A program made the translations under genes and the position numbers. 62,604 nt of DNA from a virus: IMG/VR virus record IMGVR_UViG_3300003690_000007, positions 1-62,604 of that record. The stretch is one strand, 5' to 3'. This document shows, in pieces, positions 20,218 to 42,864 of this stretch. The notes beneath the pieces were generated by a model. It searched no databases. It worked only from the letters and a program-made list of their open reading frames with translations, and had not been told where the DNA came from. Numbering within the stretch: the first letter of the stretch is position 1; each line of letters starts with the position of its first letter.

Positions 20218-21264
20218 CTATGCGAGTGTATCGGTGAACAGGAATCCCGAGACCGGCGCGGTCATCACCACGTCGTAATTCTCGACCACCCGCAGAAGAG
20301 TCCGTCGATCCTTCTCGTCACGCAGAGTTTCAACCGTCATTTCCTCGTGCATGAAAACGGTGCAGGTGGCGAAGCTCGGACTTCCAAACACCCCGATCAA
20401 CCCGCCGGGTCGGGCCGTCATGAACGCCTTGTCGTCGGAGAGAACGAACGCGCGACTGACCGAGGCGGCACCCTTGCGGCTGCTGACCTTGACGGTCTTC
20501 TCGATCACGACCGGGAAGCCGTACAGCTTGTCGGGCAACCCGTAGATCGCGTTGTTGCCGGGAAGCTCGCCGCGAATCTGAGCGAGCGCGTCGGGCGACC
20601 CCTTGATGTGTTCAACGATTTCCGCTGTCGCCGAGAGTTCCTTGGCGAGACCGGGACTCATCACCAACACCAGATCGTTGATGTCGATCCCGGCGAGCGT
20701 GTCCTTCAGGATCACGTTCGCCGCGTAATTCAACGACTGCTTGATGGCCTGATTGCCCACTGTCGCAGCGTCCCAGTACGCATTGCCGACATCGGCATGG
20801 TTGACGGCCATCGCGTGGGTGGAATCGTAGTTCGACGCCGTGGTCAGCACGGTGATCGCCTTGACAGTCCTGCCGGTCATGGCCTGCTGCGCCTTCTTGG
20901 CGGAGTACTCCTGACGAATGTCCCACGACGCCTGATCGATCGTCAGGTCACCGAGAGTCACCGGGAAGGCGAACCGCTCACAGCGGAATTCCTTCCACTC
21001 GTGCGATTCCGTCCCCTCGAATCCCTCGGGGGCGGCGGCACCGTCGGCCCACGAGAAGTTCGACAGGTCGGTGTTGAGAATCCGCCCGGCTTCTTCGAGC
21101 GTGACCTCCCGGTAGTATCCGGCCACCTTGTCGGCGGGCTGGATCTGGGCATAACTGTTGATCGCGAAATCCTTCACGTTCCTCGAGAAGTCAACAGTCA
21201 TCTTGCCGCTCGATTCGTGATCCTTCACGAACACGTTTTGATGACTTGGGTATTGGGCGACCAT
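20218..21264 (-). CDS. major capsid protein (348 aa)
   Basis: Size and position after the scaffold and decoration genes and before the connector. The upstream leader has SD gaaggag. Confidence 0.7.
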   Translation of the reverse strand: MVAQYPSHQNVFVKDHESSGKMTVDFSRNVKDFAINSYAQIQPADKVAGYYREVTLEEAGRILNTDLSNFSWADGAAAPEGFEGTESHEWKEFRCERFAFPVTLGDLTIDQASWDIRQEYSAKKAQQAMTGRTVKAITVLTTASNYDSTHAMAVNHADVGNAYWDAATVGNQAIKQSLNYAANVILKDTLAGIDINDLVLVMSPGLAKELSATAEIVEHIKGSPDALAQIRGELPGNNAIYGLPDKLYGFPVVIEKTVKVSSRKGAASVSRAFVLSDDKAFMTARPGGLIGVFGSPSFATCTVFMHEEMTVETLRDEKDRRTLLRVVENYDVVMTAPVSGFLFTDTLA

Positions 21265-23003: not shown

Positions 23004-23008
23004 TGGGG

Positions 23009-24551: not shown

Positions 24552-24775
24552 CTGTTGTCGAGGGGGATGATCGGATCGACGCCGAATAGCTCACCGGCTT
24601 TCAGCAGCGCCGCACGCCCCACGCCTCCCTGCCACTCGCGTTCCTCGACCGGGATCACCTTGTTCAATGCCTCGGCGAAATCCGGGTCATCGTCGCAAAC
24701 CCACTCCTGCTCGTCGCCGTCCACGGCGATGCGACCGATGCCGTCGAGGTTGATCCATCCGATTGCTGGCATCAC
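24548..24775 (-). CDS. hypothetical protein (75 aa)
   Basis: 4-nt overlap with the upstream gene. Confidence 0.6.
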   Translation of the reverse strand: MMPAIGWINLDGIGRIAVDGDEQEWVCDDDPDFAEALNKVIPVEEREWQGGVGRAALLKAGELFGVDPIIPLDNR

Positions 24776-26793
24776 AGACCTCGCAACGTGGCGATGACAA
24801 AGCGGAAGTATTCCGGGTCGGACTTGGCGAATCCCGTCGGGTCTTCGAACAGGCGCTCGACACCCATCGAAATCACCTCGGTGGCGGTGATTCCGAATCC
24901 AAACGACCCCATCGTTGCCTTGGGGTCATCGCCGTAGGACGAAGTCTTGTAGAGCTTCCCGGCGTAGGCCGCACGTTGCTGCGAGTCGCCCCGCTGCTTG
25001 CCACCGAAGGCGTCTCGCATCCTGTCGGGGTTGCCGTACTCGTCGAGATCGTACCAGTCGCCGTATCTATACAGCGGCCCATCGTCGTCCTCGTTCATCC
25101 GCGACATGAGGAACCCGAGCGACTTGAGCGCGTAGGTCTTCGTGGCACCGTATTCGATGTGGTGCCCGAACTCATGGGCGACGGTGACGGCGGTGACACC
25201 CGGCGTCAGACGAAGTTCCTGATCGCTGTCCGAGTAGCTCGACCGGTACTTGTGTCTCCCGCTGCTCGGTCCGATGTTGACGTGCCTGACCTTGTACGCC
25301 AGTCTCCCCGAAGGAATCCACCCGGCCACCTTCTCGACGGCCTTGGTGATCATCTGTTTCTTGTCGTCAGAGAAGTGCCCCTTGGAGAACGTCAGTTCGA
25401 CCTGTTGGCTGGTCCCCTCGGGAAGCGTGAGCGCGTCGTGGACCGCGCCGTTACGCTTCTTGCGTAGGTCGTCCCGGTCATCCCTGACCTTCTCCATCAG
25501 ACGCTCCGAGTCGCCAAGCTCTTTCAAGTACCGCTTCCGCTCTTTCGAGAGGTCGTTGGCGGACAGTCCCTTGCGTCGCTTCTGGTGCTCGCTGATGATC
25601 TCCAAGGCGATGTCGTTTGCGTCATTGATCCCCTTGTCGAGCGCCTCGATCTGTTCGTCCCACACGTCGCTGGTGAGCACTTCCTGACGAATCGACTCGG
25701 ACGTTTCGTGGAATCGCTCCTTGGCGGTCTCGTAGTCATGCGAGATCGCCTTCTTGTTTTTGAACAGTTCAGACCGCCAGTTCCGCATCTCACGACCGCT
25801 GATGTGAGCGGCGAGCAGCCGCGACGCCCGGCCTTTGCGGCCCCACTGGAAACAGCGCGCGTGTGACTTGAGTATCTCGCTCGGGATGTCCTTGACCAGT
25901 TCAACGAACCGGCGCTTCTCGTCGGCGCTGCCCTTGTCGTGGGGTTTGAGCTTGCTGCCCAACCGCGCGTAGAACGACCTGACGCTGTTGATATAGACCT
26001 CGTCGGAGCGCGGGCGAAGTTCGCGATCCCAGAGGTCGCTGTGTTCGAGCGCCCTGAGCACCTTGGAGTCTTGTGACGTTTCGGACAGCATCGCCGCCCC
26101 GATCAGCTTTTGCCGACGCTCGACCATCTTCCCAAGTGCCCGCTCTGCACCTCCCGGCGAGTAGTACTTCTCTCCCCACGGAGTCGTGAACTCCACATCC
26201 GCAGCCGCGTGGTACGCGGCGTACGTATCCTTCCACGCTGCCCGGTCTTCTTCGCTCTGCGGGTGTTGGTTGACGTGAAGCTCCTCGTTCAGCCTGACGA
26301 CCTCGTCGGCCTTGGCCTTCGCCGCCTCGTAGGCTGGCTCGATCTGGTCCCAGACCCAGAGCTTCCACTCATCCCGGAAGTCCTCGATCGTTCCTTTGAA
26401 GACCGCGCGGGGTTTCTTCCTGTTCGCCTTGGACTTCTTCTTGGGCTTCTTCTTGGCAGGCTTCTTTGGTGCAGACTTCCTTTCGCTCTTGGGTCGGTGG
26501 TCGTCCCAATCCTCTGGTTGTCCTCCGCTGCCCGAGGTGGTGGAGAACTTGCCGCCCTCGTCACGCGGGCAGTCGTCCAGTGCCGCTTCGGGTCCGCATC
26601 GATGACGGCGATCGTAGAACCCCCTCTGCAACAGTTCGCGGAAGCTGCGGACCTTGCTCGCGCGCGAGAACCGCCGAGAGAACTGGGCCACGGTGTCCTC
26701 GGGTTCCGACGGGTCGAGCATATCGAGCACGTCGGGGTGGACGCCCGGCTGGTGCTCGGACATCTCCACGAACAGGGTCGGCTTGTCACTCAC
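24772..26793 (-). CDS. polyvalent effector protein with C-terminal HExxH zinc metallopeptidase (673 aa)
   Basis: AHEFGHH (nt ~25160-25180) plus a downstream Glu (ATEVISMGVE). Also has a Lys-rich stretch (KKPAKKKPKKKSK) and one linker motif (GFYDRRHRCGPEAALDDCPRDEGGKFSTTSGSGG). Confidence 0.7.
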   Translation of the reverse strand: MSDKPTLFVEMSEHQPGVHPDVLDMLDPSEPEDTVAQFSRRFSRASKVRSFRELLQRGFYDRRHRCGPEAALDDCPRDEGGKFSTTSGSGGQPEDWDDHRPKSERKSAPKKPAKKKPKKKSKANRKKPRAVFKGTIEDFRDEWKLWVWDQIEPAYEAAKAKADEVVRLNEELHVNQHPQSEEDRAAWKDTYAAYHAAADVEFTTPWGEKYYSPGGAERALGKMVERRQKLIGAAMLSETSQDSKVLRALEHSDLWDRELRPRSDEVYINSVRSFYARLGSKLKPHDKGSADEKRRFVELVKDIPSEILKSHARCFQWGRKGRASRLLAAHISGREMRNWRSELFKNKKAISHDYETAKERFHETSESIRQEVLTSDVWDEQIEALDKGINDANDIALEIISEHQKRRKGLSANDLSKERKRYLKELGDSERLMEKVRDDRDDLRKKRNGAVHDALTLPEGTSQQVELTFSKGHFSDDKKQMITKAVEKVAGWIPSGRLAYKVRHVNIGPSSGRHKYRSSYSDSDQELRLTPGVTAVTVAHEFGHHIEYGATKTYALKSLGFLMSRMNEDDDGPLYRYGDWYDLDEYGNPDRMRDAFGGKQRGDSQQRAAYAGKLYKTSSYGDDPKATMGSFGFGITATEVISMGVERLFEDPTGFAKSDPEYFRFVIATLRGL

Positions 26794-29700
26794 TCGTCAC
26801 GCCCTCGGTGTCTTCCCACGGCCCCCAATGCTCCGTCTGCGACATCCATCCCGCCATCTCCGCGTCGTCGTAGGTGTGCTCGACAGACACATCGCAGAAC
26901 TGGTAGTAGCTGGCCTTGTCGTAGAACTGCGTATGTGTTCCATCATAGACAACGTCGCCGATCTCGACCCACGCATGAGCGATTGGGATGTTACCCATCG
27001 TCACCGTACCGTGGACGAGACGCATCTCTCGGAAGTCGTCGTTGCCTGCCGAGAACATATTATCCAGCATCAGCCGCCCGGCTTCCGGGTAGCAGTCGCC
27101 GGGCATCGGGGTGCCCAACGGCCTGTCGATCAGGTTCTTCGCTCCTTCGGGTGCGTCCGCGATCGTGGGATGCGAGAACAGGTGCGGACTGTGCTTCTCG
27201 GCGTAGGCCGTCGCTTCGGCGTGGATCTTCTGACCCTCCTTGGCCGAGACGACTTTCCCGCCGCCCGAGGTCTTCCCCCCGCCAGCCTTGGTCGCGAAGC
27301 GCCCGCCCTTGTCCCGCTTGATCTTCGACTCGTCGAACTTCCTGCCGTAGAATCCTCGGCGGTAGAACTCCTTGTCGAGCTTCTCCGCGTCATCGTCGTC
27401 AAGTCCGAGCGCCTCGCTGCTGTCGTCGGTGCGCTTCGGCCAGTCGGCGTTGTGAACCAACTCGTCGAAGTCCAGTACGAGCACGTCCGGGTCGCGGTCC
27501 TTCGCGTACCACGCCGGGCTGTCGTATCCGGGAGTGCCAACCAACCGGCCACTGGTGAGCAGATCGTCACCCCGACCCTCGAACAGTGCGCCCGTCGGCC
27601 CCTTCCACTTGCTCTTGAGGTGCTCGCGGTACGCCAAGCCAGCAAACTGTTCGGGGTCCACAACGAGATGCTGCTCCTCTGGTCGCAACGCAGGGTCTTC
27701 GCCCACACGATCAATCCAGAAGTGCGTGTCTCCGTCGTGCGGCATCACGACGACTTCGGATTCAGTCAGGCAGCCCACCCCCGTGGTCGGCATACTGAGG
27801 ATCGCCTCGATGGGAACGTGCGACGCTGCCACGACAGAGGCGGTTCCCCGCGCGAAGCTGTTCGGCCCCCCGCTCGCGAAACTGGTGGCCGTCGAGAGGG
27901 TCATCGAGTACGAACTCATCGGCTGGAACAGCGCCTCGGCGTGAAGGTGCTTCGAAGGGACGAACTTGCGCAGGTCGTCTCTTGAAATATCGAAGATACC
28001 CTCCGGCGGCTTGCGGCCATCCTCTACCCAGTTCATCCCTCTGAACAGGGTGATCGTGTCGCCCGGCTTGAAGCCCATTTCCTTGAGTTTGTCCTGCGTG
28101 TTCTCGTACTGAGACCTCACGAAGTTGCGCATATCCTTGGCGATATGCCCTTGGTAGAACTCTCGCGCCTGAGTCCTCGGCTCGTTGCCGTCCTTGATGC
28201 GCTGCCACTCTTGGCTGGTCTTCTCCCATTCGAGATAGGGTTCGTGGTCGGTCGCAGACTTGTAGAGCGCGTCGTAGAAGTGCCGCACGTTCGTGTCGTA
28301 GTCCGCCTCGGGGTCGAAGCCGACGTGATCTCTCACGAAACCGGGGTCGCGATAGTTGCCGCCCGGCTTCTCGCCGCGTGCCTGAACATTGAGATACTCC
28401 ATCTGGCGCAAGTGGCCGGACCACAATTCCTCGGTGACGTTCACCGTCCGAGTTCCGGCGGTCAACTCTCCAGCCTCGTCGCGCCCGTACCACCCCTCTT
28501 GGGCAACCTTGAACGTCACCCCCTGATCATCGCGAGGGTCGTAGTCCGTCAGCGTGTCATCATCGACGGCCTTCCTCATGCGAAGATTGTCATCGACCAA
28601 CTTCGCAAACTCGTCGGCGTTCGCGATCGGTGGCCGTCCGCTCGGTGACCACGGGCCGGACGTGACTGCGCGTTGAACATTACGCGCCGCCATGACGTGC
28701 GTGGGAAAGCTGGTCGACGGCATCTTTCTGTCGTATGCCTGCGGAGACGTTTTCGACAGCACCCGATACAGGTCTTCGAGTTCAGGAATGTCCGGCAACG
28801 GTTCTGGTTCGAAACGAGGGTCCGGGTCCATGCCGAACTCCTCGGCAGCGGCCAACTGCATCGCGATCGCTTCGAGGTGTTCGTCGGCGGAAGTCGTCGC
28901 CCACAGATCCACCCACATCCTGACTGCGCGTTCGGCAGTATGCCGACCACGGGGGTGGGCTGCCTGTGACCGCCCGCCGAGGGATGGGTCACGCTTCACC
29001 ATCCGCTCGGTCAGGGACTTGTTGAGCGCAGCCTTCGATGCGTTTCGCGCCTCTTTGCTGAACAGTGACGGGTGAGGCACATCCCCCTCGTCGGGGCTGT
29101 GGGTGCTCCCATACCAGAACGCCGCCGCGCGCGCGTCGGCCTCGTCTCCTCCCTTTCCTAGCGAGTCCTTGAGTATCTCGATCACCGAGTTCGTGAGGCC
29201 GTCCTGAAACTTCTCAAGGTTTCGCATCGACCCGACGGTGTCGGTCTTCACCTTCCCGGTGCCCGCCTTGGTCGAGAACCGCCCGCCTTCGTCACGCTTG
29301 ATCTTCGATTCGTCGAAGGGCCGCTTGTAGAACCCTCTCCGGCAGAACTCCCTGTCGAGCGGACTACGGTCAGTGAAAACCTGCAACTGCTTGCGATAGA
29401 TGTCTACGATGTCAACAGCATCACCGGACCACGTTCTCCACTCGCCGAGCGCGGACATCTGATGACCCTGAGCACCGTCGACCGGGGACACCTCAACCGT
29501 CTTGATCTGAGACTCGTCGATGTTCGCCAACGCCTCGGGGTCGGACAGGAAGAAGCCGGGGTTCATCGGACCGCCCGCGTACTCGCGGAAGGTGAGGTAG
29601 TTCTTGTACATCTGGAAGCGGTCGTACAGTGCGTCCTCTGGAGGTTGGGCGCGTTCCCACGCAGCAAACTTTCCCGGTGCCGTCTCGTGTGCTCCCTCAA

Positions 29701-30625
29701 TCACACGCCACTCACCCGCACCATCCTTGGGTTTCTCGTCCTTCATCTCCTCGGCAGTCTTCGGCCACCCGTGACGGTACTCGGTGCCATCCATTGCGCG
29801 CTTCATGCCCGGAGGAAATTCGTCTCCCTCTTCCCAGTTCCGATCCCACATCGAGATCAGGTCTTTCAGGAACGGCTTACCGTTGGTGGATCCTCCAGTG
29901 CGAGCATCCTCGACCAGATCCTGTGGAGTGATCTCTCCCCTCGCGAACTTGCGACCCTCCTTGAGCAAGCTGACGATAGCGTCGGCCACCTCCTTGTCCT
30001 CAGTGAAGCTGACCGTGTCGTCGTCTCCTCCACCAAGCCCCAGCCCGGCCTCCTGACCCAACTCGACCCTGCTCTTGAGTCCGGTCTCCCTCACGGCATC
30101 GGAAGCGGTCGTCGCGTGGTACATCTTCTCGGGTAACTCGACCACCCCCTGAATCCCATCCGGAACACCGACGGCGAAGAATCCCATCTTGTCGGCTACC
30201 TTGGCATCAATCGCCCCGGTAGCGATTGCCAGACGTACCTGTTCCTTCCACTCACTCTCCCGGATTCTGTCGTGTCCGAACGCCCGGCGCACGACCTCCT
30301 TGCCGAACTTCTCATACAAGTCGTCGAGTCCGAGATCTGATTCAAACACCTCGGGGTGGGGATTGTCGAGTCGTGCGAACTCCTTCACCGGCATCCTCAG
30401 CGCGGGGAACTCGGACAGCTTGTGTCGCTTGGCCCGCCTCGACTTCTTCTGGTCGGCAGGCGACGACCCGCCCCCAGCAGACTCCGAGAACTTCCCATCG
30501 TCGGCGCGCGGGTGCTCGTCCTCCTTCCAGCGCGCATAAAACTCGCGAGCGAGCAAAGTTCGCACACTGCGAACCCTGCTCGCTCGCTGCACGGCGTGTC
30601 GGATGGTCTGGCTACTTCTTGCCAT
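26786..30625 (-). CDS. polyvalent effector protein: R-S-ExE ADP-ribosyltransferase + C-terminal transglutaminase/papain-like Cys-His-Asp domain (1279 aa)
   Basis: LFRG ... LSTATSF ... TESEVVV (nt ~27740-28060). GDCYPEAG ... IAHAWVEIGDVVYDG (nt ~26940-27100). Three linker motifs lie at nt ~30468-30545, 29255-29335 and 27275-27355. Confidence 0.75.
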   Translation of the reverse strand: MARSSQTIRHAVQRASRVRSVRTLLAREFYARWKEDEHPRADDGKFSESAGGGSSPADQKKSRRAKRHKLSEFPALRMPVKEFARLDNPHPEVFESDLGLDDLYEKFGKEVVRRAFGHDRIRESEWKEQVRLAIATGAIDAKVADKMGFFAVGVPDGIQGVVELPEKMYHATTASDAVRETGLKSRVELGQEAGLGLGGGDDDTVSFTEDKEVADAIVSLLKEGRKFARGEITPQDLVEDARTGGSTNGKPFLKDLISMWDRNWEEGDEFPPGMKRAMDGTEYRHGWPKTAEEMKDEKPKDGAGEWRVIEGAHETAPGKFAAWERAQPPEDALYDRFQMYKNYLTFREYAGGPMNPGFFLSDPEALANIDESQIKTVEVSPVDGAQGHQMSALGEWRTWSGDAVDIVDIYRKQLQVFTDRSPLDREFCRRGFYKRPFDESKIKRDEGGRFSTKAGTGKVKTDTVGSMRNLEKFQDGLTNSVIEILKDSLGKGGDEADARAAAFWYGSTHSPDEGDVPHPSLFSKEARNASKAALNKSLTERMVKRDPSLGGRSQAAHPRGRHTAERAVRMWVDLWATTSADEHLEAIAMQLAAAEEFGMDPDPRFEPEPLPDIPELEDLYRVLSKTSPQAYDRKMPSTSFPTHVMAARNVQRAVTSGPWSPSGRPPIANADEFAKLVDDNLRMRKAVDDDTLTDYDPRDDQGVTFKVAQEGWYGRDEAGELTAGTRTVNVTEELWSGHLRQMEYLNVQARGEKPGGNYRDPGFVRDHVGFDPEADYDTNVRHFYDALYKSATDHEPYLEWEKTSQEWQRIKDGNEPRTQAREFYQGHIAKDMRNFVRSQYENTQDKLKEMGFKPGDTITLFRGMNWVEDGRKPPEGIFDISRDDLRKFVPSKHLHAEALFQPMSSYSMTLSTATSFASGGPNSFARGTASVVAASHVPIEAILSMPTTGVGCLTESEVVVMPHDGDTHFWIDRVGEDPALRPEEQHLVVDPEQFAGLAYREHLKSKWKGPTGALFEGRGDDLLTSGRLVGTPGYDSPAWYAKDRDPDVLVLDFDELVHNADWPKRTDDSSEALGLDDDDAEKLDKEFYRRGFYGRKFDESKIKRDKGGRFATKAGGGKTSGGGKVVSAKEGQKIHAEATAYAEKHSPHLFSHPTIADAPEGAKNLIDRPLGTPMPGDCYPEAGRLMLDNMFSAGNDDFREMRLVHGTVTMGNIPIAHAWVEIGDVVYDGTHTQFYDKASYYQFCDVSVEHTYDDAEMAGWMSQTEHWGPWEDTEGVTSE

Positions 30626-31550
30626 CGTCCTTGAGTTGGATCAGGTACGGGAAGCGCTTGCCCTTGGGTACATCGTCCGACGGAAACTCGACACCGCTGT
30701 CGTCAATCGGCAACCGCCTCAGTTCCTCGTCGCTCGGCATCTTCACCTTGCGGTCCATCGCCCATTCGATCTTCGCCCGTTTGGCCCACGTTCTCATTCT
30801 GCGAACGGGTACGATCAGGTTGAAGCTCTCCCCGGCACCGCGCACGAGCATACCGATCAGACGCCCGTCTGTCTTGTAGACACCGCCGCCACTCGAACCG
30901 GGAAACGCCGGGCACGTCGTTTGATCGAAAACCGTCTTGCCGATCAGTCGACCATGTTGGGACATGATGCCGCTCGTCATCGAGTTCGACCCCAGACGAC
31001 CTCCGAGCAGGCTCCCGACGTGGTACAACCGGGTTCCCAACGGCGGGATCGGTTTGTCGAGGTAGAACTCCACGCTGCTCTTGATGAAGCCGCGCTTGCG
31101 CACGCGCAGGAGCGCGAGATCCTCTCCGTGGTCGGCGTCGGAATAGCGGATGACGGCCGCTGACATCTCAAGAACGCCGACGGTGCGTCCATCTTCGATG
31201 AGCGTCTTCACAACCTTCGCGTCCTTGAACTCGATCACCGTCCGCTTCGATCCAGTCTTCGCGTCAACCACCTGTCTTGTGCTGCGAAGGTCATCAATCA
31301 CATGGGCTGCCGTCCACACGAACGTCTGGTCTCCTCGGACGAACGCCACGCCGGAACCCTCCGACGAGGACGCGCGTATCGTCACCGAGATGTCTTGAAG
31401 GTGTTGGGGAACGCCAGCCTCCGGCGTGCAGTCCTTCTCGGCGTCTGCGGCGGCGATCATGGAGGTCGTCACCGGGTAGCCGCCGGGTGAAATCGGGATC
31501 AGGCCGAGCGTGGCAATCGACAGTGCTGCTAGAACGAGGAACGGTTTCAT
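30612..31550 (-). CDS. trypsin-fold (S1/DegP-like) serine protease with N-terminal signal-peptide-like helix (312 aa)
   Basis: MKPFLVLAALSIATLGL. Catalytic triad: His in WTAAHV, Asp in DLALLRV, Ser in PGSSGGGVY. Confidence 0.8.
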   Translation of the reverse strand: MKPFLVLAALSIATLGLIPISPGGYPVTTSMIAAADAEKDCTPEAGVPQHLQDISVTIRASSSEGSGVAFVRGDQTFVWTAAHVIDDLRSTRQVVDAKTGSKRTVIEFKDAKVVKTLIEDGRTVGVLEMSAAVIRYSDADHGEDLALLRVRKRGFIKSSVEFYLDKPIPPLGTRLYHVGSLLGGRLGSNSMTSGIMSQHGRLIGKTVFDQTTCPAFPGSSGGGVYKTDGRLIGMLVRGAGESFNLIVPVRRMRTWAKRAKIEWAMDRKVKMPSDEELRRLPIDDSGVEFPSDDVPKGKRFPYLIQLKDDGKK

Positions 31551-31576
31551 CGGTCACTCCTTTGACCAGAGGGTTG

Positions 31577-33202
31577 TCAGTCGTCTTGACTGTCTGTCGT
31601 GGTGTATTCGTCATTCTCCATTTCATCCCACATCGCGTCGAGGTCAGCCAGTTCCTCGGGCGACAGGTCCGGCTCCTCGACCAGAGCGGTGGCCTGTTGT
31701 GGGGGCGTGTCCTTGTCTTTCTGGTACTGGTCGGGGAGCTTCCGCGCTGCCACCTTGCGGCGGATGTACTTGTCGAGAATCTTGCTGCTCTGAGAGCCTT
31801 CGCTCGTGTCAAACACGAGATGGACGATTCTGCCGAACTTTGTCCACCACGCACGGCCCTCCTTATGCTTGAGCAGTTCGAGAATGTCGACGCTGCATTC
31901 ATCCTCGAGTCTGAATGCAGCGTCAGGACAGTCGCCTGACAGTCCCAACTTCTCCAGCAGGTCCGGGGAAACTTCGCTACCGTCGACTGTTTCGAGCAGG
32001 TCGAAGATGTCAACGCTGGCCCCGCCGTATCCCATCTTCGGCCAGACATCGTAACCGACCACTGGAGATAGTCCCTCCCCACCCTCCCCAAGTCCCGGTC
32101 CCTGCCCCGCCGCCGATACTTTGATTTCAGCAATTCCTTCTTCGCGACAGAACTGAACCTGCTTACTCAACATTCGCGACCCGATACCTTGTCCCTGATA
32201 TTCAGGTTTCACCCTAAGCGTCTGGTTTGTAACCGTTCGGGTTCCATCTCCCTGAAAGTAAAACATTCGATTCGCATGCACCTTTTCATGTTGGACCGTC
32301 ACATCGGCGACCCAAGTTCCCGTTCTGGTGTCACTGGACAGCAAGACCCACACCTTCGCGTCATCGGGGGCACCGACCAGACTCGCCATACGGGAAATGG
32401 GAATTCCCGTAGCCTTCGTGAACAGCTTCGAATTCACCCCCGGAGTGCGCGACCCCACGGGGATGGGGATCCGACCGAAGCTCCTGTGCCCGTAGCGCAC
32501 GCCTCCGCTGGCGACCTTGGCCTTGGATGGCTGGATGTTCGGGCTGGATACCGGATCCTTGTCCTTCACGCCCGCGTACTGGACTTCATCGAAATCGTGA
32601 GCCGCGTCGAGCAGATCGTGGATGTTGGCCTGAACTTGTAGCAACAGCATCTTCGAGTTCGGGTCGATAAGACGCTGTGCCGCCCACCTGTGGTGTCCGT
32701 CGAGGATGTGCCCGTCCGCGCTCGCGAGGACGCGGCTGTCGGACTTGGACGGATCGAACTTTCCATCGCGCATCGCCTGTGCCATCCCGTGAACCTTGTC
32801 CCAGTTCAGTTCCTCTTGAGTCCCCTTCAGATCTTGGACCGACACCGACGCTTCCTTGATCTCGATACCCTTTGCTTGTAGCTGTTCGACGAACGGCTCG
32901 ATGTTGTCGGCGGTGATCTGTGGCATATCGTGTCTCTTCAGGCCGATGTTATCCTCGAGGATCTGGGCCTCCCGTGACTCCTGATCAGAATCGGGTTCCG
33001 CTTGGCCGGGCGCGGTGGACGTGCCCCCGGCACTGGAGAAGCGACCGGGATGCTTGGCATCACCGCCACGGTTCACCGTGGACTCATCCCACGTCTTCTT
33101 GTATATCTCTCGTCCCTGCTCCTCGCTCGCGAGCGGAACCAACGGGAGATCGGCAATCACGCCGTCTATCTCGACACTCCCCCGGAAGATTTCAGGAATC
33201 AT
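31577..33202 (-). CDS. polyvalent effector protein: ParB/Srx-like nuclease domain + GNAT acetyltransferase (541 aa)
   Basis: LKGTQEEL...ILDGHHRWAAQRL (nt ~32678-32708). RVKPEYQGQGIGSRMLSKQ (nt ~32170-32196). One linker motif, YKKTWDESTVNRGGDAKHPGRFSSAGG. Acidic C-terminus. Confidence 0.75.
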   Translation of the reverse strand: MIPEIFRGSVEIDGVIADLPLVPLASEEQGREIYKKTWDESTVNRGGDAKHPGRFSSAGGTSTAPGQAEPDSDQESREAQILEDNIGLKRHDMPQITADNIEPFVEQLQAKGIEIKEASVSVQDLKGTQEELNWDKVHGMAQAMRDGKFDPSKSDSRVLASADGHILDGHHRWAAQRLIDPNSKMLLLQVQANIHDLLDAAHDFDEVQYAGVKDKDPVSSPNIQPSKAKVASGGVRYGHRSFGRIPIPVGSRTPGVNSKLFTKATGIPISRMASLVGAPDDAKVWVLLSSDTRTGTWVADVTVQHEKVHANRMFYFQGDGTRTVTNQTLRVKPEYQGQGIGSRMLSKQVQFCREEGIAEIKVSAAGQGPGLGEGGEGLSPVVGYDVWPKMGYGGASVDIFDLLETVDGSEVSPDLLEKLGLSGDCPDAAFRLEDECSVDILELLKHKEGRAWWTKFGRIVHLVFDTSEGSQSSKILDKYIRRKVAARKLPDQYQKDKDTPPQQATALVEEPDLSPEELADLDAMWDEMENDEYTTTDSQDD

Positions 33203-36200
33203 ACCAACTCCCTGTCTTTCCAGAATGCGTAGACGTTCGGGTATTCCTCCCGAATCTTATTGCGGTCCTTGCGGGTCAGGATCAGTCGACCGAACTCCGC
33301 GAATCCTTCACGGGCATCTTGGCTCGCGTGGTTTGTGAGTTCGCCATTTGAAAGGTCCACCTTCCACGCCTGTTTCCAGTCCTCCTCGCTGGACAGGTGT
33401 CCGCTGAACCGACCATCGATGGCGTGTGTCATCGCGTGAGCAAAAATGTGTACCATCCGCGCACCCTTCGGAAGCCCGCCTCCCCCGTGGTCCGTGTAAC
33501 CGTGGGGGTCGATCATGTGCAAGCTGGCCGTGTGCGGATCATAGGCCGCGATCGGGTGACCATCCCTCCCCCAGCCTATGCTGCCCATCAGGCCGATCGA
33601 TTCGTCCATCGCCTCCCGGCTCCCGTGGAACAACATCTGCTTGACTGATCGGGACATCCGGCGGCGACCGCGTTGGGACATCTTGTTGGTAAGGTCTGTC
33701 ACCGCTCGACCCATGACCTTCCGGCGAGCGGCAGTGCTGACCCCACCTGATTTGATGGCCGAGTGTTCGAGACCTTGCTTGCGTCTCTCGCCGAGTTCGG
33801 CCCTCACCGTTGCCGCGCCTTTCTCCATGCGCCACAGCCTCTGGGGTACTCCCGGCGCATCGGGGTCTTCAGGAAGCTCTGCCATGATAAGCCATGTATC
33901 ACCGCCGGGCATCTTGATTTTATCATTCGCCTTCTTGCGGCTGCGCGTCGTCGCGGGTGCGTCCTTGCCGGGAGCCGCTGCGCCGCCCTTTGTGGCAAAC
34001 TGTCCCTTGTCGTCGCGCTTGATGTTCGATTCTTCAAACTGCTTCCGGTACTGCGCAGCTTCGGTCGATCCGAAATTGAAGTTGAGCATGAACTTGGAAC
34101 ACGGCTTGCCGCCTTCCTCGCAGAACTCGGTGTAGAAATCGCTGGCGTCCTGCCGGTAGTCGAACCCGGACCCCTTGTGGGCCTGCCCCTTGTTATCGCC
34201 CGTCGTGTAGACAAAGTGGTTCTGCCCAGCATCGGACCAGATCACCGAATCCTGATTGTACTTCTCGCCCATCTCGACCATCTCGCCGCGTGACGCCTCG
34301 GGGATCATCACCAGAATCGCCGCTTCGTCGTGACCCTCGTATCGCCCGTTGCCTTCCGAGAACACGAAGCCGCGAGCTACGAGGTCGTCCTTCAGCTTGT
34401 CGTGGCGGGCTGCCGCCTGCTCGGGCGACATATCCGGCTCGTAGTTCGGGTTCTTGCCCGCGCTGATCAGGCCGACGATGCCGTGCTTCAGCAGGTCGTC
34501 GACTTCCTCAAGCGTGAAGTGGACGTGCTCGCCCTTGCCCGGTTCGCGGCGTGCGATCTTCTCGGCCAGCCCGCCGACCTTCAGCCGCTTCCCCGCCTCG
34601 GCGGCGTGCTGTCGCCACACGTCGGGAACCTGCGGCTTGATCGGCAACTTGTCGGGCGCGGTCGTTGTTGCCGATCCACCGCCTGAGCCGAACTTCCCAT
34701 CAGCAGCACGCGGGTGATCGGCTTCCCGGAACTTCGCGTAGTCCTCGGTCAACTCGTCGTAGGTATCCTGTTCTGCCTCGGTCCACTTGCTGAAGAAATC
34801 CTCGCCGTACTTCTCGTCCATCTCGAACGTGAAGTCGGACACATCGTCATACGTCTTCTTTGGTTCGGGCTTCTTCTCTGCCGACCAGACCTCTACCTCA
34901 TAGCCCCATCCGGGGAGCGGCTCACGATAGCTTTCGCCCACACCTCTCCTCAGATTCACGTCGTCGAAATCCCCCTCAAGACCAATGTAGGCGATTCTGT
35001 TTCCGGGGGTTGATCGCTCGCCAGCCCATTTTCCAGTTTCGAGAATCTCCTTGAACTCCTTGATAGACCCTCGCCACCTCTCAACGGCGGTGTTCTCGTT
35101 TTCCCACGCGACCCTGACCATGACACCCGACGACCGAACCGTTCCCGTCAGGCCCATGTTGCGAGCCTGCTGTTTCAGTTCCCAGATCGCGTCGTCTCTC
35201 AGCTTGCGAACCTGAGCTTTGAGTTCCTTGACCTTTCCGACCTTCCATCCTGTCTTGATGTCCTCGGAAGACCAGAGACCCTCGTCGGTCTCGTCGGCGG
35301 CACTCCCGCCGCCTGCCTTGTCCGAGAACTGGCCGCCCTCGTCGCGATCGTGCTGCGACTCATCGAACTGCTTGGCGTATGTGATGCGAGGGTCTTCTGG
35401 ATCGAAGTCGCCCTTGTTGCCGATCGCCGACTTGATCTGTGTCGGCTCGAACGCGATGAACGTCGTGGCCCGAAGATTGTCGGAGTAGTAGTCGTTGAAC
35501 TTGATCCCGTCGAACCCGGCACTCACAGCCTGCGCTCGCAGAACCTTCACAATCTCGTACTGGTTGAGAATCTGGTAGAGGTCGCGGCCCGCAACCGGGA
35601 AGTCCCGCATCGACACGTCCAGACCGTTGTCTTTCAACAGCGACACCAGCTTCTTGGTGCTGACCCGGCGCGCTGGCAACGAGGTCAGGTCGAGCGGGTT
35701 CTCCATCTTCGCGAAGACAGGCTTGATCTGTGAGCCGACCCCGAGACCTTTCTTGCCCTTGTATCCGAATAGGTAGTCTGGCTCGTTTCTGTCCTCGTGA
35801 ACCTCCCGCATGAGTTCCCGTGCTGACTTGATCGCACCCTTGACCTCGGACTTTATCCCCTTTTGCTTCATGAGACCCTTGGGGTCTTCGATGCTCCAAT
35901 CGAACTTGCCACCGATCTCGTCGGCCAAGTACATGGCGTGCTCAAGGTCCAGCCCGGTTGCGATAGCCATCCCGCTGGGCTTGTGTGTCACGCTGTAGTA
36001 AGTCTCGTCTGGATCGTGGACGGGAAACATCCCGCTCCCTTTCTCAAACGGGGTGTGCGACCCACTAGCCAAGACGAGATCGTGGTGTGGGGTGATGTAT
36101 CCGGACCGGTCCTCCATGCCGTCCTGAGTCCCAATCTGGACCGTGGCCTTCTTGTAGTCGAACAGTTCCACCGTCGGTTTATTGAGTGGCTTTCCAGACA

Positions 36201-39108
36201 CAGCGAACTCGGACGCGAACTTGGGGTCGTCGCTCAGGTAGTGCCAACCGAGACCGGCCAGCCCCTCGTCGTCGCCACGCCAGAACTTACCGAACGTCTC
36301 GAAGCTCTGGTCGGTCCCGTGGTAGAGACGCAGCGGCTCGCCCTGATCGTCAATGACCTTCGAAGCGCCAAACCACTCCGTGAACTTCGGCGTGTCGGTC
36401 TGCTTCCCCTTCGACTTCTGCTCCGACGAGCCGTCTCCTGATTTCTCAGAGAACCGACCGGGGTGCTCGGAGTCACCGCCACGACTCACCTTCGACTCGT
36501 CGAACTTAGCGTGCCGCTTGGCGTACTTGTCGTCGGTTTCGGCCCCCTGAACAAACCCAGAATCATGCACACCCAAGTACCAGTCGGCTTCCGGGAAAAA
36601 CCCGTCGAGCCTTCCGCCGTTGGTGATCTTGACCGTGGACACGCCTCGCTGCAAAAACGCGCCTTTCCGAAACGCCTCTACGTCAATGCCCCGTTCTACC
36701 GACCTCGGGAACTTGTCCCCAAACTCCCACCCGCTGATCGCAGCACCAAACTCCTCGGCTTCTTTCCGGGACTCCTGTTTTGTGATGGGGCCAATCCCGT
36801 CCATGAACTCATCGACCTGACCTTGCCAGTCTCTCGCGGCAACGGACACCCCGTACTTGTTGTATTTCACCGCAGACTGAATCAGGAACTCTTGCCACTC
36901 CAAGTGGCTGTCGAATGTTCGCATCCCGCCGCTTTTGATCAGCACCGGCGTCTTGGTCTTCTTGTCGCCAGCGGGTGTCCTTGCATAAATGTCCGCTTCT
37001 GACGGAACACTGGTGAAGAAGACTCCGAGTGTGTCGAGTATCGGCTTGCCTGTTCGCAAGACCTTGCCGGTTGTAAGTTTTCCGTGTGCATCCGCGTCGT
37101 AGCTCTGGCTTCCGTGCCACACGACCCGTGGGTCACCGTTGTCGTCACGAAGAATGTCGTCTCTCCCCTTTGCCATCTTCAGCAAAGACTCCGAGGCTGA
37201 CTTCTCGCGGGGAGACAACGCTGTCGGGTCGCCGCCCGACTTCTCGGAAAATCGCCCCGGATGGTCGGGGTCACCGCCGCGAGAAACCTTGCTCTCGTCG
37301 AACTTGGCGTGCCGCTCGACGATGTGACGGTCAGCCCGCTGGCGCTCCCCCGTGTCAAAAGGGATGTCCCGCTGCTGCCACTTCCCGTCGGTCGAGACGT
37401 AGGTAACGGTCTGCCCGTCCACACTGGCCTCACCAAAAAGTTCCCGCAGGACAGAGTCGGTGTCCCGGTCGACATCGGGCGGGGGGGGCACGTCGTCCAT
37501 CCGGTCCATCTGTTCGACCCCATCCTGCGGGGTTGGTGGCTGCCCAACTCCACCCGGTCCCATACCGGGAAACATCCCGCCACCGCCGCCGGGTGGCGCG
37601 CCGCCCATCTGGTCCTCTGGCATCTCAAGCACGCGGTCCTCCTCGGTCGGCACCGCCGCACCGATGAGTTCCATCACGTCGCTTTCCTTCAATTTAGCGC
37701 CCATCTGGAACGCCATCTGCCACGCGCTGAGCTTCTCGGACGGGTCTTGCTCCTCCACATCGATCTTGAAGGAGATATGGATTCCCTTGGCCGATGGGAA
37801 GTTCCAGTCCTTGATGTATTTGACGAGTTGGTGGGTGATCGTCTCCTCCAAGTTCGTCGCGTCGTACTTGATGATTTGCAAGAACGTGTCGAGATGTAAC
37901 TCGGCCAGCCCGCTGCCAAGCCCTGTTGCTTGGGCCTCGGACGAGAGGGTCTGGCCGAGTATGTATCGTTTGATCCTGTGACCGTAGTAGTCGTTCAGGA
38001 TGTTCTGGAGCGCGTCGATGCCACCCATTCCCGGTTCGATGATCTCGACTCCGAAGGCGTGCGCGTCGTCGCCCATCGGTTTCGGGACGAGGACGATGTT
38101 CCGCTGGTTGGCGACCCGCTCCTCGGCTGCGATTCGCGCCTTCTTTTCAGCTTCCTCGTTGCCCTGCGGGTAATACCAGATCTCGATTCCACCCGCCGAC
38201 CGCTCGAGGTACTCCATCAGGAACGCGAGGCACTCCTGCTTCTGAAACCAGTCCCAGTAGATTCTCGATCGCAGGCCGACGCCGTGAACCATCCCGGCGT
38301 CGATGAAGTTGTGCCAGTCTCCGTCCTCGATCGTGTGCTTGTGAATCGCCAGCAGAGGACGTTCCCAGTCTTTTAGAAAGTAGGCCAGCCCGCTCTCGGT
38401 CGGCTCCACGTCCCATCGACCCGAGATCTTGTCGTCAGACATGAACCGGGATCCGATCTTGATCCCGACCTGATCGGGCTTGTTGTCGGCGCTTCCGTCG
38501 TCATACCGAAAGACGAGCTTGTCCCCGTTGACCGGAATCCATCCGGGGTTGTCGCGGTAGGCGGCGGGCATCACCCGCATCCTGCCGTTGACATCGCTCC
38601 AGCGGTATCGGTGCTGCACTGCGTAGCGTCCGTACCACACCGCGTGCAGTAGATTGAACCGATACTCGGTGAACCGATGTATCCGGTTCAGGATCTTCGT
38701 CAGTTCCTCGACGAGTGCCACTTGCTCGGTCGAGTTCTCGTCCTCGGGTTCGAGATGCCAGCCAAGCATCGCGGTGCAGCGCTGCCTCGCCTCGACGCAC
38801 TCCATGATCCCGCAGTCGTTCCGCATGAAGCGCGCGTTCTCGCGCGAGTCGCGCAGGGCTTCGTCATTTGCCTGATAGACCTTCGAGAATGAACCGGAGA
38901 TCCCGGCGAACGACAGGACGTGCGGGATGGGGAACTTGCCGAAGTTCGGCGCGGAGCCGGGAATTCCCGTGGCCGGGTCTGTCGCTGCCTCGTTCCGCTC
39001 TTGGACAATCTTCTCGATAAAGCTCGCGGGCCTGCGATCCTCCCCGTTGCCGTTGCCGTTGCCGCTGGCTGCTTGCAACGCATCGGTCAAATCGCGAACC
39101 TTCGCCAT
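33199..39108 (-). CDS. portal protein (Mu gp29/DUF935-like, about the first 500 aa) fused to ~1,450 aa of polyvalent effector domains (1969 aa)
   Basis: Portal hallmark GQTLSSEAQATGLGSGLAELHLDTFLQIIKYDATNLEE, then a Gly/Pro linker (GGAPPGGGGGMFPGMGPGGVGQPP). Two ART-like modules follow (VVWHGS...FFTS; WFGASKVIDDQGEPLRLYHGT...QIKSAIGNKGDFD). Then a DUF3293-like LISAGKNP module and a degenerate metallopeptidase end (FAHAMTHAIDG...EGFAEFG). Five linker motifs. Confidence 0.75.
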   Translation of the reverse strand: MAKVRDLTDALQAASGNGNGNGEDRRPASFIEKIVQERNEAATDPATGIPGSAPNFGKFPIPHVLSFAGISGSFSKVYQANDEALRDSRENARFMRNDCGIMECVEARQRCTAMLGWHLEPEDENSTEQVALVEELTKILNRIHRFTEYRFNLLHAVWYGRYAVQHRYRWSDVNGRMRVMPAAYRDNPGWIPVNGDKLVFRYDDGSADNKPDQVGIKIGSRFMSDDKISGRWDVEPTESGLAYFLKDWERPLLAIHKHTIEDGDWHNFIDAGMVHGVGLRSRIYWDWFQKQECLAFLMEYLERSAGGIEIWYYPQGNEEAEKKARIAAEERVANQRNIVLVPKPMGDDAHAFGVEIIEPGMGGIDALQNILNDYYGHRIKRYILGQTLSSEAQATGLGSGLAELHLDTFLQIIKYDATNLEETITHQLVKYIKDWNFPSAKGIHISFKIDVEEQDPSEKLSAWQMAFQMGAKLKESDVMELIGAAVPTEEDRVLEMPEDQMGGAPPGGGGGMFPGMGPGGVGQPPTPQDGVEQMDRMDDVPPPPDVDRDTDSVLRELFGEASVDGQTVTYVSTDGKWQQRDIPFDTGERQRADRHIVERHAKFDESKVSRGGDPDHPGRFSEKSGGDPTALSPREKSASESLLKMAKGRDDILRDDNGDPRVVWHGSQSYDADAHGKLTTGKVLRTGKPILDTLGVFFTSVPSEADIYARTPAGDKKTKTPVLIKSGGMRTFDSHLEWQEFLIQSAVKYNKYGVSVAARDWQGQVDEFMDGIGPITKQESRKEAEEFGAAISGWEFGDKFPRSVERGIDVEAFRKGAFLQRGVSTVKITNGGRLDGFFPEADWYLGVHDSGFVQGAETDDKYAKRHAKFDESKVSRGGDSEHPGRFSEKSGDGSSEQKSKGKQTDTPKFTEWFGASKVIDDQGEPLRLYHGTDQSFETFGKFWRGDDEGLAGLGWHYLSDDPKFASEFAVSGKPLNKPTVELFDYKKATVQIGTQDGMEDRSGYITPHHDLVLASGSHTPFEKGSGMFPVHDPDETYYSVTHKPSGMAIATGLDLEHAMYLADEIGGKFDWSIEDPKGLMKQKGIKSEVKGAIKSARELMREVHEDRNEPDYLFGYKGKKGLGVGSQIKPVFAKMENPLDLTSLPARRVSTKKLVSLLKDNGLDVSMRDFPVAGRDLYQILNQYEIVKVLRAQAVSAGFDGIKFNDYYSDNLRATTFIAFEPTQIKSAIGNKGDFDPEDPRITYAKQFDESQHDRDEGGQFSDKAGGGSAADETDEGLWSSEDIKTGWKVGKVKELKAQVRKLRDDAIWELKQQARNMGLTGTVRSSGVMVRVAWENENTAVERWRGSIKEFKEILETGKWAGERSTPGNRIAYIGLEGDFDDVNLRRGVGESYREPLPGWGYEVEVWSAEKKPEPKKTYDDVSDFTFEMDEKYGEDFFSKWTEAEQDTYDELTEDYAKFREADHPRAADGKFGSGGGSATTTAPDKLPIKPQVPDVWRQHAAEAGKRLKVGGLAEKIARREPGKGEHVHFTLEEVDDLLKHGIVGLISAGKNPNYEPDMSPEQAAARHDKLKDDLVARGFVFSEGNGRYEGHDEAAILVMIPEASRGEMVEMGEKYNQDSVIWSDAGQNHFVYTTGDNKGQAHKGSGFDYRQDASDFYTEFCEEGGKPCSKFMLNFNFGSTEAAQYRKQFEESNIKRDDKGQFATKGGAAAPGKDAPATTRSRKKANDKIKMPGGDTWLIMAELPEDPDAPGVPQRLWRMEKGAATVRAELGERRKQGLEHSAIKSGGVSTAARRKVMGRAVTDLTNKMSQRGRRRMSRSVKQMLFHGSREAMDESIGLMGSIGWGRDGHPIAAYDPHTASLHMIDPHGYTDHGGGGLPKGARMVHIFAHAMTHAIDGRFSGHLSSEEDWKQAWKVDLSNGELTNHASQDAREGFAEFGRLILTRKDRNKIREEYPNVYAFWKDRELV

Positions 39109-41286: not shown

Positions 41287-42864
41287 CTATCTCCCGAACA
41301 ACGATCCGTTGCGCCCGTTGCGCACATTGCTCCGAGTGTCTGTTGTAATCCTATCCCTGTCTGCGAACAAGATTGATCGTTTTCCGCCGTCCCGCTGAAG
41401 ATGAACGCCGTACCTTCGATCGTCCCGCTCGCGCTTGGTCGGCTGTGGCACGATCCCGTCGATCTGCGCTTCGGAGAACAGCAGGTATCTCAGGGCGTCT
41501 ACCGCGTGATCGTCCTTCTTCAACGGCTCCGGTCGAGCGTCGCGAGGGTTCATACCCTTGTCGCTGGGTTGAATCCAACGGTACGTCCGCATCTCGCGCG
41601 ACAAGTTCGGGCAGTTGTTCTTGTGAACGAACAGGCGAGGCTCGCCGAGACCGGGAACCGTCTTGAGTGCCTGACGAACGTAGTCGATCCCCTCGAGGAC
41701 AGCGTTCGCCGCCCCCGACATCTGGAAGCCCGCACGCTGCGCGATGCGAATGCTGTCGAGTCCCGACGGGTCGGCCCACGTCGTCCCGTAGTTGGGGTGG
41801 TCCTTCGGCCACGACTCCATATCCTCGATCGCATCGAGGTGGTCTAGCACAGTCCGGTTCTGATCGGTTGACCAGTATTCGTTGTAAATGAACCACTGCC
41901 CCACGCCGTTGCGATAAGCCCACAGGCAATAGAAGGCGTTGCTGGGTCCAGCCCCCCAGTCGATCGCGCGTCGGTAGAAGCAGCCGTCCGGGTGGTCGAT
42001 CTTGTCATCTTCGACGAGGTGAATGTGCGGGTTGAACCCCTGATAGATCGCGCCTTCGTATGAGGCGAACGCGCCGATCAGGCGAGTCAGCAACATCTCG
42101 TCAGGGATCATCCCGTAGAATTCGTCGAACCACGCCGCGCTGATGTGTCCCTTCTCTTTCGCGCACTCGGTGTTGCACCGGTACACTTCCCACCCCTCCG
42201 GCAGCCGGTCATTCTCGATCATCTCCTCGATGGGTGCCGAGAGACCGGGATCGACAGGCGTGAACTCGCAGAACTTCGATCCGGGGAAGTTGTACTCGCG
42301 ACAACCTCGCAGCACCTCGGTCAGCAGGGCGTATGGGAATTGCTCGCTGAAACAGAAGCCGCCGATCGACCGCGCCTGCAATCGTTGGCGTCCTTGCTCA
42401 TAGCTCTTGAACTCCAGCACCCAGTTCTTTCGAGGACGACCCGGCCACGAGAGGAGCGGCACCCGGAAAGGCCAGTTCTGGTTTGGCTTGTACCAACTGA
42501 TCCTGTCCCAGTCGATCTCGCTCGACGGCAGGTGTCCGTGGCCGTAGAGCTTCTCCTTCCATAACGTCTCCATCACCTGTTCGTAGGTGTCGCCGATAAG
42601 CCAGAACGGCGTGTCGAACCGGGGCGGCGGCGTGTTCATCACGAACCGCGCGACCTTGTTCATCGCGCACTCTGTCGTCCCGCTGCCGTTGCCACCGATT
42701 AGCCAGATGACTCCGCTGCTGTCTGCCTCGATGAACCCCGTCTGCTGGTCGTACCGCTCGAGATCGTCCTCGCGCGGCGTGAAGACAAAATATGCCTGCT
42801 CGGCCTGTTCGGTCAACAGGGCCAGATCTTCGATCGGGTCAGTCAGGCTCATCATCACTCGCAT
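41287..42864 (-). CDS. terL: terminase large subunit (525 aa)
   Basis: Walker A-like IGGNGSGTTE (nt ~42673-42696), Walker B-like GGFCFSE, and nuclease motifs AIDWG and KKDDHAVDALRYLLF. Confidence 0.85.
   Translation of the reverse strand: MRVMMSLTDPIEDLALLTEQAEQAYFVFTPREDDLERYDQQTGFIEADSSGVIWLIGGNGSGTTECAMNKVARFVMNTPPPRFDTPFWLIGDTYEQVMETLWKEKLYGHGHLPSSEIDWDRISWYKPNQNWPFRVPLLSWPGRPRKNWVLEFKSYEQGRQRLQARSIGGFCFSEQFPYALLTEVLRGCREYNFPGSKFCEFTPVDPGLSAPIEEMIENDRLPEGWEVYRCNTECAKEKGHISAAWFDEFYGMIPDEMLLTRLIGAFASYEGAIYQGFNPHIHLVEDDKIDHPDGCFYRRAIDWGAGPSNAFYCLWAYRNGVGQWFIYNEYWSTDQNRTVLDHLDAIEDMESWPKDHPNYGTTWADPSGLDSIRIAQRAGFQMSGAANAVLEGIDYVRQALKTVPGLGEPRLFVHKNNCPNLSREMRTYRWIQPSDKGMNPRDARPEPLKKDDHAVDALRYLLFSEAQIDGIVPQPTKRERDDRRYGVHLQRDGGKRSILFADRDRITTDTRSNVRNGRNGSLFGR

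Follow-up and report, generated by a model that had tools for sequence, protein, structure and literature searches.

A Mu-type phage portal protein continued in frame by a string of polyvalent-type effector modules

The virus record IMGVR_UViG_3300003690_000007 of IMG/VR was analysed over positions 1-62,604, and this whole stretch is called the window below. It carries a single open reading frame (ORF) at 33199..39108 on the minus (-) strand, in which a complete Mu-type portal protein is continued by ~1,372 amino acids (aa) of polyvalent-type modules, giving a fusion protein of 1,969 aa and 219.5 kDa. The reading I favour, with a probability of about 60%, is that the sole portal of this phage is extended by polyvalent cargo, the strings of which would lie inside the capsid, be cleaved at maturation and be ejected with the DNA. 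An initial annotation had proposed such a fusion, and its interpretation was confirmed as right in kind and found wrong about rarity: the protein is a large addition to the known portal-anchored polyvalent proteins. Its core stands, namely that the only portal is covalently joined to a polyvalent-type string, so that the presence of the string at the portal vertex is guaranteed; the rarity of the arrangement, the hinge as its boundary and its confinement to a single gene do not.

The portal domain and its true end

The N-terminal 596 aa (37321..39108) form a complete portal of the Mu type. Pfam Portal_Mu (PF06074, DUF935) matched with 141 bits and E=7e-41, against a cut-off of 23.9, its core covering aa 95-483 (nucleotides (nt) 37660-38826) and profile positions 7-335 of 336, and PHROG 113, 'portal protein', matched with E=5e-34. 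Twenty-nine members of the portal clade were combined into a profile, which matched the solved portals 8rka (E=5e-10) and 9khx, which is Mu gp29 (E=6.7e-7); single-sequence phmmer searches of the PDB returned nothing for the portal part or the effector string, and profile searches alone succeeded. The Mu gp29/DUF935-type portal that the initial annotation had recognised at the N-terminus is therefore confirmed by Pfam, PHROG and PDB-profile matches, and the peptide it quoted (GQTLSSEAQ...) corresponds to aa 385-422. The portal part was 50-77% identical to hundreds of portals. In 50,697 phage records, tblastn and megablast found no close relative, just RcapMu-type portal matches of ~29% identity and short matches to ADP-ribosyltransferases (ARTs).

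The extent of the portal had to be revised. It had been taken to end at ~500-520 aa, with a Gly/Pro hinge at nt ~37556-37612 as the fusion boundary and ~1,450 aa of effector domains beyond. The hinge exists close to that place, at aa 502-525 (37534..37605; GGAPPGGGGGMFPGMGPGGVGQPP). It is present in unfused relatives too: the portals P0003, P0004, P0005 and P0008 (584-605 aa) have a Gly/Pro-rich hinge followed by a ~70-aa tail and end at the equivalent of aa ~592 of the window protein. Since the unfused relatives possess both, hinge and tail are native to the portal, the tail here being aa 526-596 (37321..37533), which includes the sequence VPPPPD and aligns with the short portals. By these alignments the fusion point is not the hinge; it is the first copy of a recurrent junction motif, at aa 597, which shortens the added string to ~1,372 aa (152.6 kDa).

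The ORF begins with ATG and contains 1,969 codons and zero internal stops, in line with the earlier statement that it runs uninterrupted from the portal into the effector domains. The GC content at third codon positions (GC3) in the annotated frame was 0.67-0.86 per 300-nt block in all blocks, hinge included, and a protein in JGI data (P0121) is identical to the fusion protein. The two ends of the window are identical over 91 bp (1-91 = 62514-62604), from which it follows that the genome is complete, circular or terminally redundant, with a length of ~62,513 bp. The gene for the large terminase subunit, terL, was located at 41287..42864 (-) by PHROG terL families (E=2e-17); the portal gene lies downstream of it, as had been claimed, with three small genes between them, and the major head protein gene follows further downstream at 20218..21264, which puts the fusion gene between terL and the major head protein gene. 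Pfam and PHROG family scans of the 30 largest other ORFs of the window revealed no second portal, so the fused portal keeps its place as the sole candidate in a complete genome. MuF (Phage_Mu_F) likewise gave no match at Pfam E<0.01 in the fusion protein or in 30 other ORFs.

Fused genes of the same kind were found in related phages. Three proteins of 1,424-1,428 aa from independent ENA and Logan assemblies (P0122-P0124) are encoded by colinear fused genes with 75-77% identity over aa 1-613, a span that covers the hinge, the run of eight C discussed below (C8), the tail and the first junction, and colinearity resumes at aa 1272-1969. The question of fused or split versions in related genomes is thereby answered: these are fused, and there is no stop or frameshift after the portal in them. 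Between the two colinear flanks the window protein has 658 aa (modules B and C, described below) where P0124, whose colinearity stops at aa 613, has 125 unrelated residues; from the aligned sequences it looks as if module cassettes are swapped between relatives at the junctions.

The initial annotation had regarded a direct portal fusion as unusual, a 'more extreme' arrangement, and this was not upheld. When 1.84 billion cluster representatives were searched exhaustively with the portal part by HMMER, 957 proteins were returned at E<=1e-30; the best 150 of these, all with E<1e-136, always carried the portal at the N-terminus. Among these 150, six were shorter than 650 aa, 47 had 650-999 aa, 83 had 1,000-1,999 aa and 14 had at least 2,000 aa (maximum 3,126); 144 of the 150 thus exceeded 650 aa and 97 reached at least 1,000 aa, figures which may be biased upward because a cluster representative may favour the longest member. 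Two earlier homologue lists (<=876 aa and >=1,085 aa) were biased by candidate selection, so the exhaustive search alone supplies the length statistics given here. In the relatives, portals are fused to LPD1, LPD3, InPase, ART-PolyVal, NUDIX, 2H, N12 methylase and SNF2 domains, which are the classic polyvalent set, and entries in nr named 'DUF935' or 'phage portal protein family protein' reach 1,325-2,253 aa. Such fusions had, moreover, been published in 2017 and 2022.

Effector modules, junction motif and neighbouring genes

The extension consists of five modules, B to F, parted by a recurrent disordered junction motif; the five linker motifs and the at least four further domains of the initial annotation were thus borne out, with exactly five motif copies in the ORF 33199..39108 and five modules after the portal. 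The motif has the form [FW]-x-E-x-x-(H-P-R)-x3-G-[KRQ]-F, of which H-P-R is often present, and is followed by a Gly/Ser tail. Its five copies occupy aa 597-626, 862-892, 1240-1267, 1454-1479 and 1684-1710. Scored with a hidden Markov model (HMM) of the motif, and with all positions on the minus strand, the junctions are: junction 1 with its Gly/Ser tail at aa 597-636 (37201..37320; HAKFDESKVSRGGDPDHPGRFSEKSGG; 42.9 bits), which is the true fusion point; junction 2 at aa 862-902 (36403..36525; 36.3 bits); junction 3 at aa 1240-1278 (35275..35391; 50.1 bits), modelled as disordered with a predicted local distance difference test score (pLDDT) of ~30; junction 4 at aa 1454-1490 (34639..34749; 37.8 bits), with the canonical form FREADHPRAADGKF; and junction 5 at aa 1684-1720 (33949..34059; 44.5 bits).

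The modules between these junctions could be assigned with very different confidence. Module B (aa 637-861; 36526..37200) is weakly ART-like, matching the N-terminal third of ART-PolyVal at E=7.7e-4 and 20.7 bits, under the cut-off, and had no homologue among 240 retrieved proteins. Module C (aa 903-1239; 35392..36402) is an ART-PolyVal ADP-ribosyltransferase with an insert of ~140 aa: PF18760 matched in two stretches at E=2.5e-20, scoring 74-84.9 bits against a cut-off of 31.2. Module D (aa 1279-1453; 34750..35274) received no assignment; it shows 38-40% identity to P0122-P0124 alone, its model was poor (pLDDT 57) and a fold search yielded noise only. Module E (aa 1491-1683; 34060..34638) is S-adenosylmethionine (SAM)-lyase-like, of the T3 SAMase family (PF23780, S-AdoMet_lyase; E=1.3e-6) with an overlapping DUF3293 match, and scored 28.8 bits as an isolated module and 24.2 bits within the whole protein, the cut-off being 28; the same family is also among the precomputed matches of P0122-P0124.

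Module F (aa 1721-1969; 33202..33948, with a core of aa 1790-1969) is a C-terminal zincin domain with the fold of anthrax lethal factor (LF) and the Pro-Pro-endopeptidases (PPEPs; M34), as judged by profile and Foldseek searches. Its family profile matched anthrax LF in the PDB with E=1e-5, and its AlphaFold2 model (pLDDT 81.6) retrieved LF and PPEP-1/2/3 in Foldseek with template modelling (TM) scores of 0.55-0.63, E ~2e-4 and a probability of 1.0. The HExxH site reads HAMTH (nt 33424-33438): the catalytic Glu is replaced and the downstream E of 'GFAEFGR' is kept. In P0122-P0124 the site is YAMAR or YALAS, with both His gone too, and eight more distant relatives retain HExxH in this domain. 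Because HAMTH has no catalytic Glu, the sequence indicates that this cis zincin is almost certainly an inactive peptidase here. The idea that such a zincin is a universal 'cap' of fused portals was rejected, the domain being found in 12 of the 240 retrieved proteins.

Set against the description of polyvalent proteins by Iyer et al. (2017), the chain unites disparate activities, contains ART-PolyVal and is encoded amid late/virion genes; the active zincin metallopeptidase for (auto)processing, a common and not obligatory theme of these proteins, is replaced by the HAMTH form. Beyond a weak DegP/HtrA match, an NCBIfam scan gave nothing further for the fusion protein or its neighbours.

The junction motif is not confined to the fusion gene. 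Ten copies were detected in the window by the motif HMM, all within four adjacent genes (5 + 1 + 3 + 1), so the effector string is not restricted to one gene as had been supposed: the motif also heads three genes downstream. In the retrieved portals (n=240) it occurred in 56 of the 120 long proteins, 13 of the 33 mid-length ones and 2 of the 87 short ones, and the fusion protein has the highest count (five) of the set. I infer from this distribution that 24772..37320 is a cargo array of ~12.5 kb, or ~20% of the genome.

The first of the three genes, at 31577..33202 (-), overlaps the portal stop by 4 nt with its start and is kept beside the portal in the loci L003 and L004; it encodes 541 aa, with an N-terminal junction motif (44.3 bits), a DGHHR (ParB-like) region and a GNAT domain found by Pfam. 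Before the GNAT domain, at aa ~76-217, the sequence DGHILDGHHRW resembles ParB/sulfiredoxin-fold (DdrB-like) polyvalent domains, and PHROG 2859 (unknown function) is the sole match there. It is followed by a gene for a trypsin-like (HtrA-type) serine protease of 312 aa at 30612..31550 (-), identified by Trypsin_2 (E=4e-15) and weakly by NCBIfam DegP/HtrA, whose N-terminus is hydrophobic and signal-peptide-like (MKPFLVLAALSIATLGLIPIS). This gene does not keep its position among relatives: the L003 array lacks it, and L001 has a trypsin-domain gene elsewhere.

The second motif-bearing gene, at 26786..30625 (-), encodes 1,279 aa, in which the junction motif occurs three times (aa ~31, ~434 and ~1094; 42.9, 50.1 and 43.7 bits). 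By eye, an R...S-T-S...E-x-E pattern (TLFRG / SYSMTLS / ESEVVV) in this protein suggests an Alt/VIP2-type ADP-ribosyltransferase, and its C-terminus has a Cys/His region with a faint transglutaminase-like match, both below Pfam significance. The third gene, at 24772..26793 (-), encodes 673 aa with an N-terminal junction motif (41.1 bits) and a C-terminal HEFGH. The zincin signature in its C-terminal ~150 aa is intact and accompanied by a downstream Glu-containing helix (TEVISMGVERLF), with no Pfam match, and on this sequence pattern the protein is a candidate trans-acting processing peptidase. It was rejected as a member of the module F family, the HMM of which gives no match to it. The closest relative's locus, L003, has a comparable layout: the fused portal, the GNAT protein, a 1,391-aa protein and a 239-aa protein, with the motif near the start of each free-standing protein. 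The more distant loci L001, L002 and L005 are without extra cargo genes.

Several other genes of the region were noted. A KTSC-domain protein of ~370 aa is kept between terL and the portal across the phage group (window 40163-41284 (-); L001 8290-9420; L002 8348-9460; L005 8324-9427), and the gene at the terL position of L001 (4460-8161) codes for 1,233 aa with a faint intein-splicing match, which suggests an intein-containing terminase. Two ORFs of 416 and 412 aa at 21765-24259 (-) separate the cargo array from the major head protein; neither has a family match, and the 412-aa product is highly acidic and Ala/Pro-rich, as in a scaffold-like protein. The genome showed no recognisable prohead protease of the canonical kind. 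Far from the head genes, a PD-(D/E)XK nuclease (PF12705, E=1e-23) at 58177-58989 (-) lies in what is presumably an early or replication region.

Fate of the extension

Each portal subunit is translated with its cargo string attached, and in portals the crown and the C-terminus face the capsid interior. The cargo of every subunit would accordingly end up inside the procapsid, amounting to 12 x 152.6 kDa = 1.83 MDa, a mass similar to that of the internal or ejection proteins of P22- and T7-like phages. As the head matures, the extension would be cut from the portal, and probably also into its modules; once free, the proteins would pass out together with the DNA through the portal and tail channel and be the first to act in the new host. 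Going by the family names, module E may deplete SAM and so blunt SAM-dependent restriction, and the ART module may ADP-ribosylate host proteins or nucleic acids, re-programming or disabling its targets. The three motif-headed neighbouring genes would supply further cargo of the same system, and the portal fusion would assume the anchoring role that MuF has in other phages.

Several points weigh against this account. I infer packaging, cleavage and ejection alike from the covalent portal link and from analogy. No protease can be assigned to the cleavage: the cis zincin has lost its catalytic Glu (and in P0122-P0124 both His too), and the trypsin-like enzyme starts with a stretch resembling a signal peptide, its gene being missing from the array of the closest relative. 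The SAM-lyase assignment is borderline, module B is weakly ART-like and module D has no identification. Finally, the junction motif is missing in about half of the long fusions and at the D-E junction of P0122-P0124; being so patchy, it cannot be an obligatory processing site.

The initial annotation had offered two outcomes for a dodecameric portal, twelve tethered copies or cleavage during maturation, and these remain the right alternatives, with cleavage favoured. If the extension stayed uncleaved, twelve copies would sit permanently on the portal crown inside the capsid, where they might organise or retain DNA or become exposed after ejection, with no free entry into the host. The dead cis zincin and the lack of an assigned processing protease speak for such tethering, as do the phage N4 virion RNA polymerase and plasmid ArdC/TraC1, which passages of PMC5512222 give as proteins transferred unprocessed. 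I nonetheless regard tethering as unlikely: enzymes of the ART and SAM-lyase types act on host targets and would be without substrate inside the capsid, and the junctions are predicted to be long, disordered and accessible to proteases. Delivery moreover requires cleavage, because twelve anchored 153-kDa chains cannot leave through the portal channel, and cleavage is favoured by the precedent of Mu gp29 in the same portal family, whose C-terminus is reported to be removed at maturation (PMC11915804). That precedent can also be read another way, since the removed part of Mu gp29 is not known as an effector (PMC11915804) and sequence itself does not prove packaging: the extension could be disposable, cut off before or during assembly to play a late role in the infected cell or to serve as an assembly chaperone or scaffold, with no delivery at all. 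A function in the cytoplasm of the producer cell is, however, an ill fit to a covalent tie with the portal, which makes presence in every procapsid certain, and the domain set matches that of virion-packaged polyvalent proteins, which makes this explanation rather improbable.

The C8 run at ~37481-37488 (-), in codons 541-543, which encodes part of VPPPPD, bears on two further explanations. It is the sole homopolymer of at least seven bases in the 5.9-kb ORF, and a -1 shift there stops after 16 codons (predicted peptide after the run, ARCRPGHRLCPAGTFW), which would give a portal of ~560 aa, the size of unfused relatives. The virion portal might thus be mixed, with mostly short subunits and few carrying cargo, produced by ribosomal or transcriptional slippage or by cleavage before assembly. 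Relatives do not keep the run, however: in L003 and L004 the codons of the Pro stretch are CCT CCC CCT CCG CCG, the region is free of such a run in other fused relatives, and a C-run is expected by chance for PPPP at 77% GC3. Programmed slippage at C8 was judged unlikely because of this lack of conservation, and a mixed portal is very unlikely overall. The same homopolymer, with low-complexity sequence near the hinge, is the kind of place where indels are common, so that the fusion could be suspected to be an artefact, either an assembly chimera or a sequencing indel that has joined two distinct genes, one for a portal and one for a polyvalent protein. This is effectively refuted: P0122-P0124, from independent samples, keep the frame beyond C8 and show 68-76% identity over the tail and junction 1, GC3 is in frame throughout, there are more than 140 distinct fused representatives, and the fusion point at aa 597 lies 55 codons past the run.

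A more far-reaching and tentative proposal concerns the motif. It may possibly act as a signal dedicated to cargo, being either a site of processing or a peptide that targets proteins to the procapsid, and be common to portal-fused and free-standing proteins; 24772..37320 would then be one co-packaged array, the portal would stand in for MuF as a loader that binds covalently and at fixed stoichiometry, and zincin processing would have moved in trans, the candidate proteases being the 673-aa protein with its HEFGH zincin and the trypsin-like enzyme embedded in the array. If true, this would amount to a general, testable grammar of phage effector loading and release. A role of the motif as a general prohead-protease site was considered and judged unlikely, as the major head protein and the scaffold-like ORFs are without it. 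The searched literature held no description of the motif, though absence there is no proof of novelty; the word 'linker' has zero occurrences in PMC5512222, and the motif does not appear in the keyword-matching passages of PMC5512222 and PMC9503650. Two modest points may be new: the shared motif, by which free-standing cargo genes are tagged as well, and the loss of the active site of the cis zincin in this sub-clade.

Anchoring cargo on the portal is a simple way to secure anti-defence enzymes in every particle, near the exit channel. The present case is a clean example, because the genome is complete and has a single portal and no recognisable MuF, and it displays the design at large scale, with 1.8 MDa of portal-linked cargo and three motif-tagged cargo genes. 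For annotation, it means that very long 'DUF935' proteins are portals with cargo and not errors; for mining, that the junction motif delimits exchangeable modules, several of no known function. The system also lends itself to testing directly if such polyproteins are cut, and at which sites. Current concepts are left unchanged, since the principle goes back to a proposal of 2017 and metagenomes hold many instances of the architecture.

Comparison with known systems

The closest counterparts are the polyvalent proteins themselves. PBECR, 2H, InPase, ART and NUDIX domains fused to portals are read, in passages of PMC5512222 and PMC9503650, as head-packaged, injected effectors, and effectors fused to MuF are likewise described there as packaged and injected. 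The window protein shares with polyvalent proteins several unrelated enzymatic domains in one chain, a place among late/virion genes, ART-PolyVal together with a zincin-type domain, and a direct portal link; packaging and injection with the DNA are predicted for both. The portal fusions described in those passages have the simplest architectures, with one effector, as in gp124 of Burkholderia phage BcepF1, which joins a portal to InPase (Iyer et al. 2017, PMC5512222; 2022, PMC9503650). In contrast, the window has five modules in the fusion protein and three motif-bearing cargo genes, and its zincin is degenerate.

Long Portal_Mu/DUF935 proteins belong to the same clade (46-80% identity) and have the same layout of an N-terminal portal and C-terminal polyvalent strings, many of them with the junction motif; examples are P0161 of Trichococcus shcherbakoviae (1,745 aa), P0138 of a member of the Planctomycetaceae (1,325 aa) and P0171 of the Chloroflexota (2,253 aa). 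Modules D, E and F and the GNAT gene downstream are common to P0122-P0124 and the window, whose fusion protein has two extra ART-type modules. The use of a head protein of the portal vertex as an N-terminal effector anchor is also seen in MuF (Mu gp30 / SPP1 gp7) fusions and MuF polymorphic toxins. Unlike in those systems, no MuF was detected in the proteins scanned here, and the anchor is the portal itself, covalent and with its stoichiometry fixed at 12.

Mu gp29 (9khx) is of the same portal family and has a C-terminal segment that is dispensable in the mature virion: its last 124 residues are missing from the virion structure, which the authors attribute to cleavage by protease I, the head protease (PMC11915804). 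The segments differ in content, as the ~124 residues lost from Mu gp29 have no known function, whereas ~1,372 aa of enzyme modules follow the portal here. Module F resembles anthrax LF and PPEP (M34) in fold (TM ~0.6), and its relatives keep HExxH and the downstream Glu ligand; an LF-like zincin fold also occurs in phage entries named 'minor capsid protein'. It departs from LF and PPEP in reading HAMTH, with the general-base Glu lost, which makes an active peptidase unlikely.

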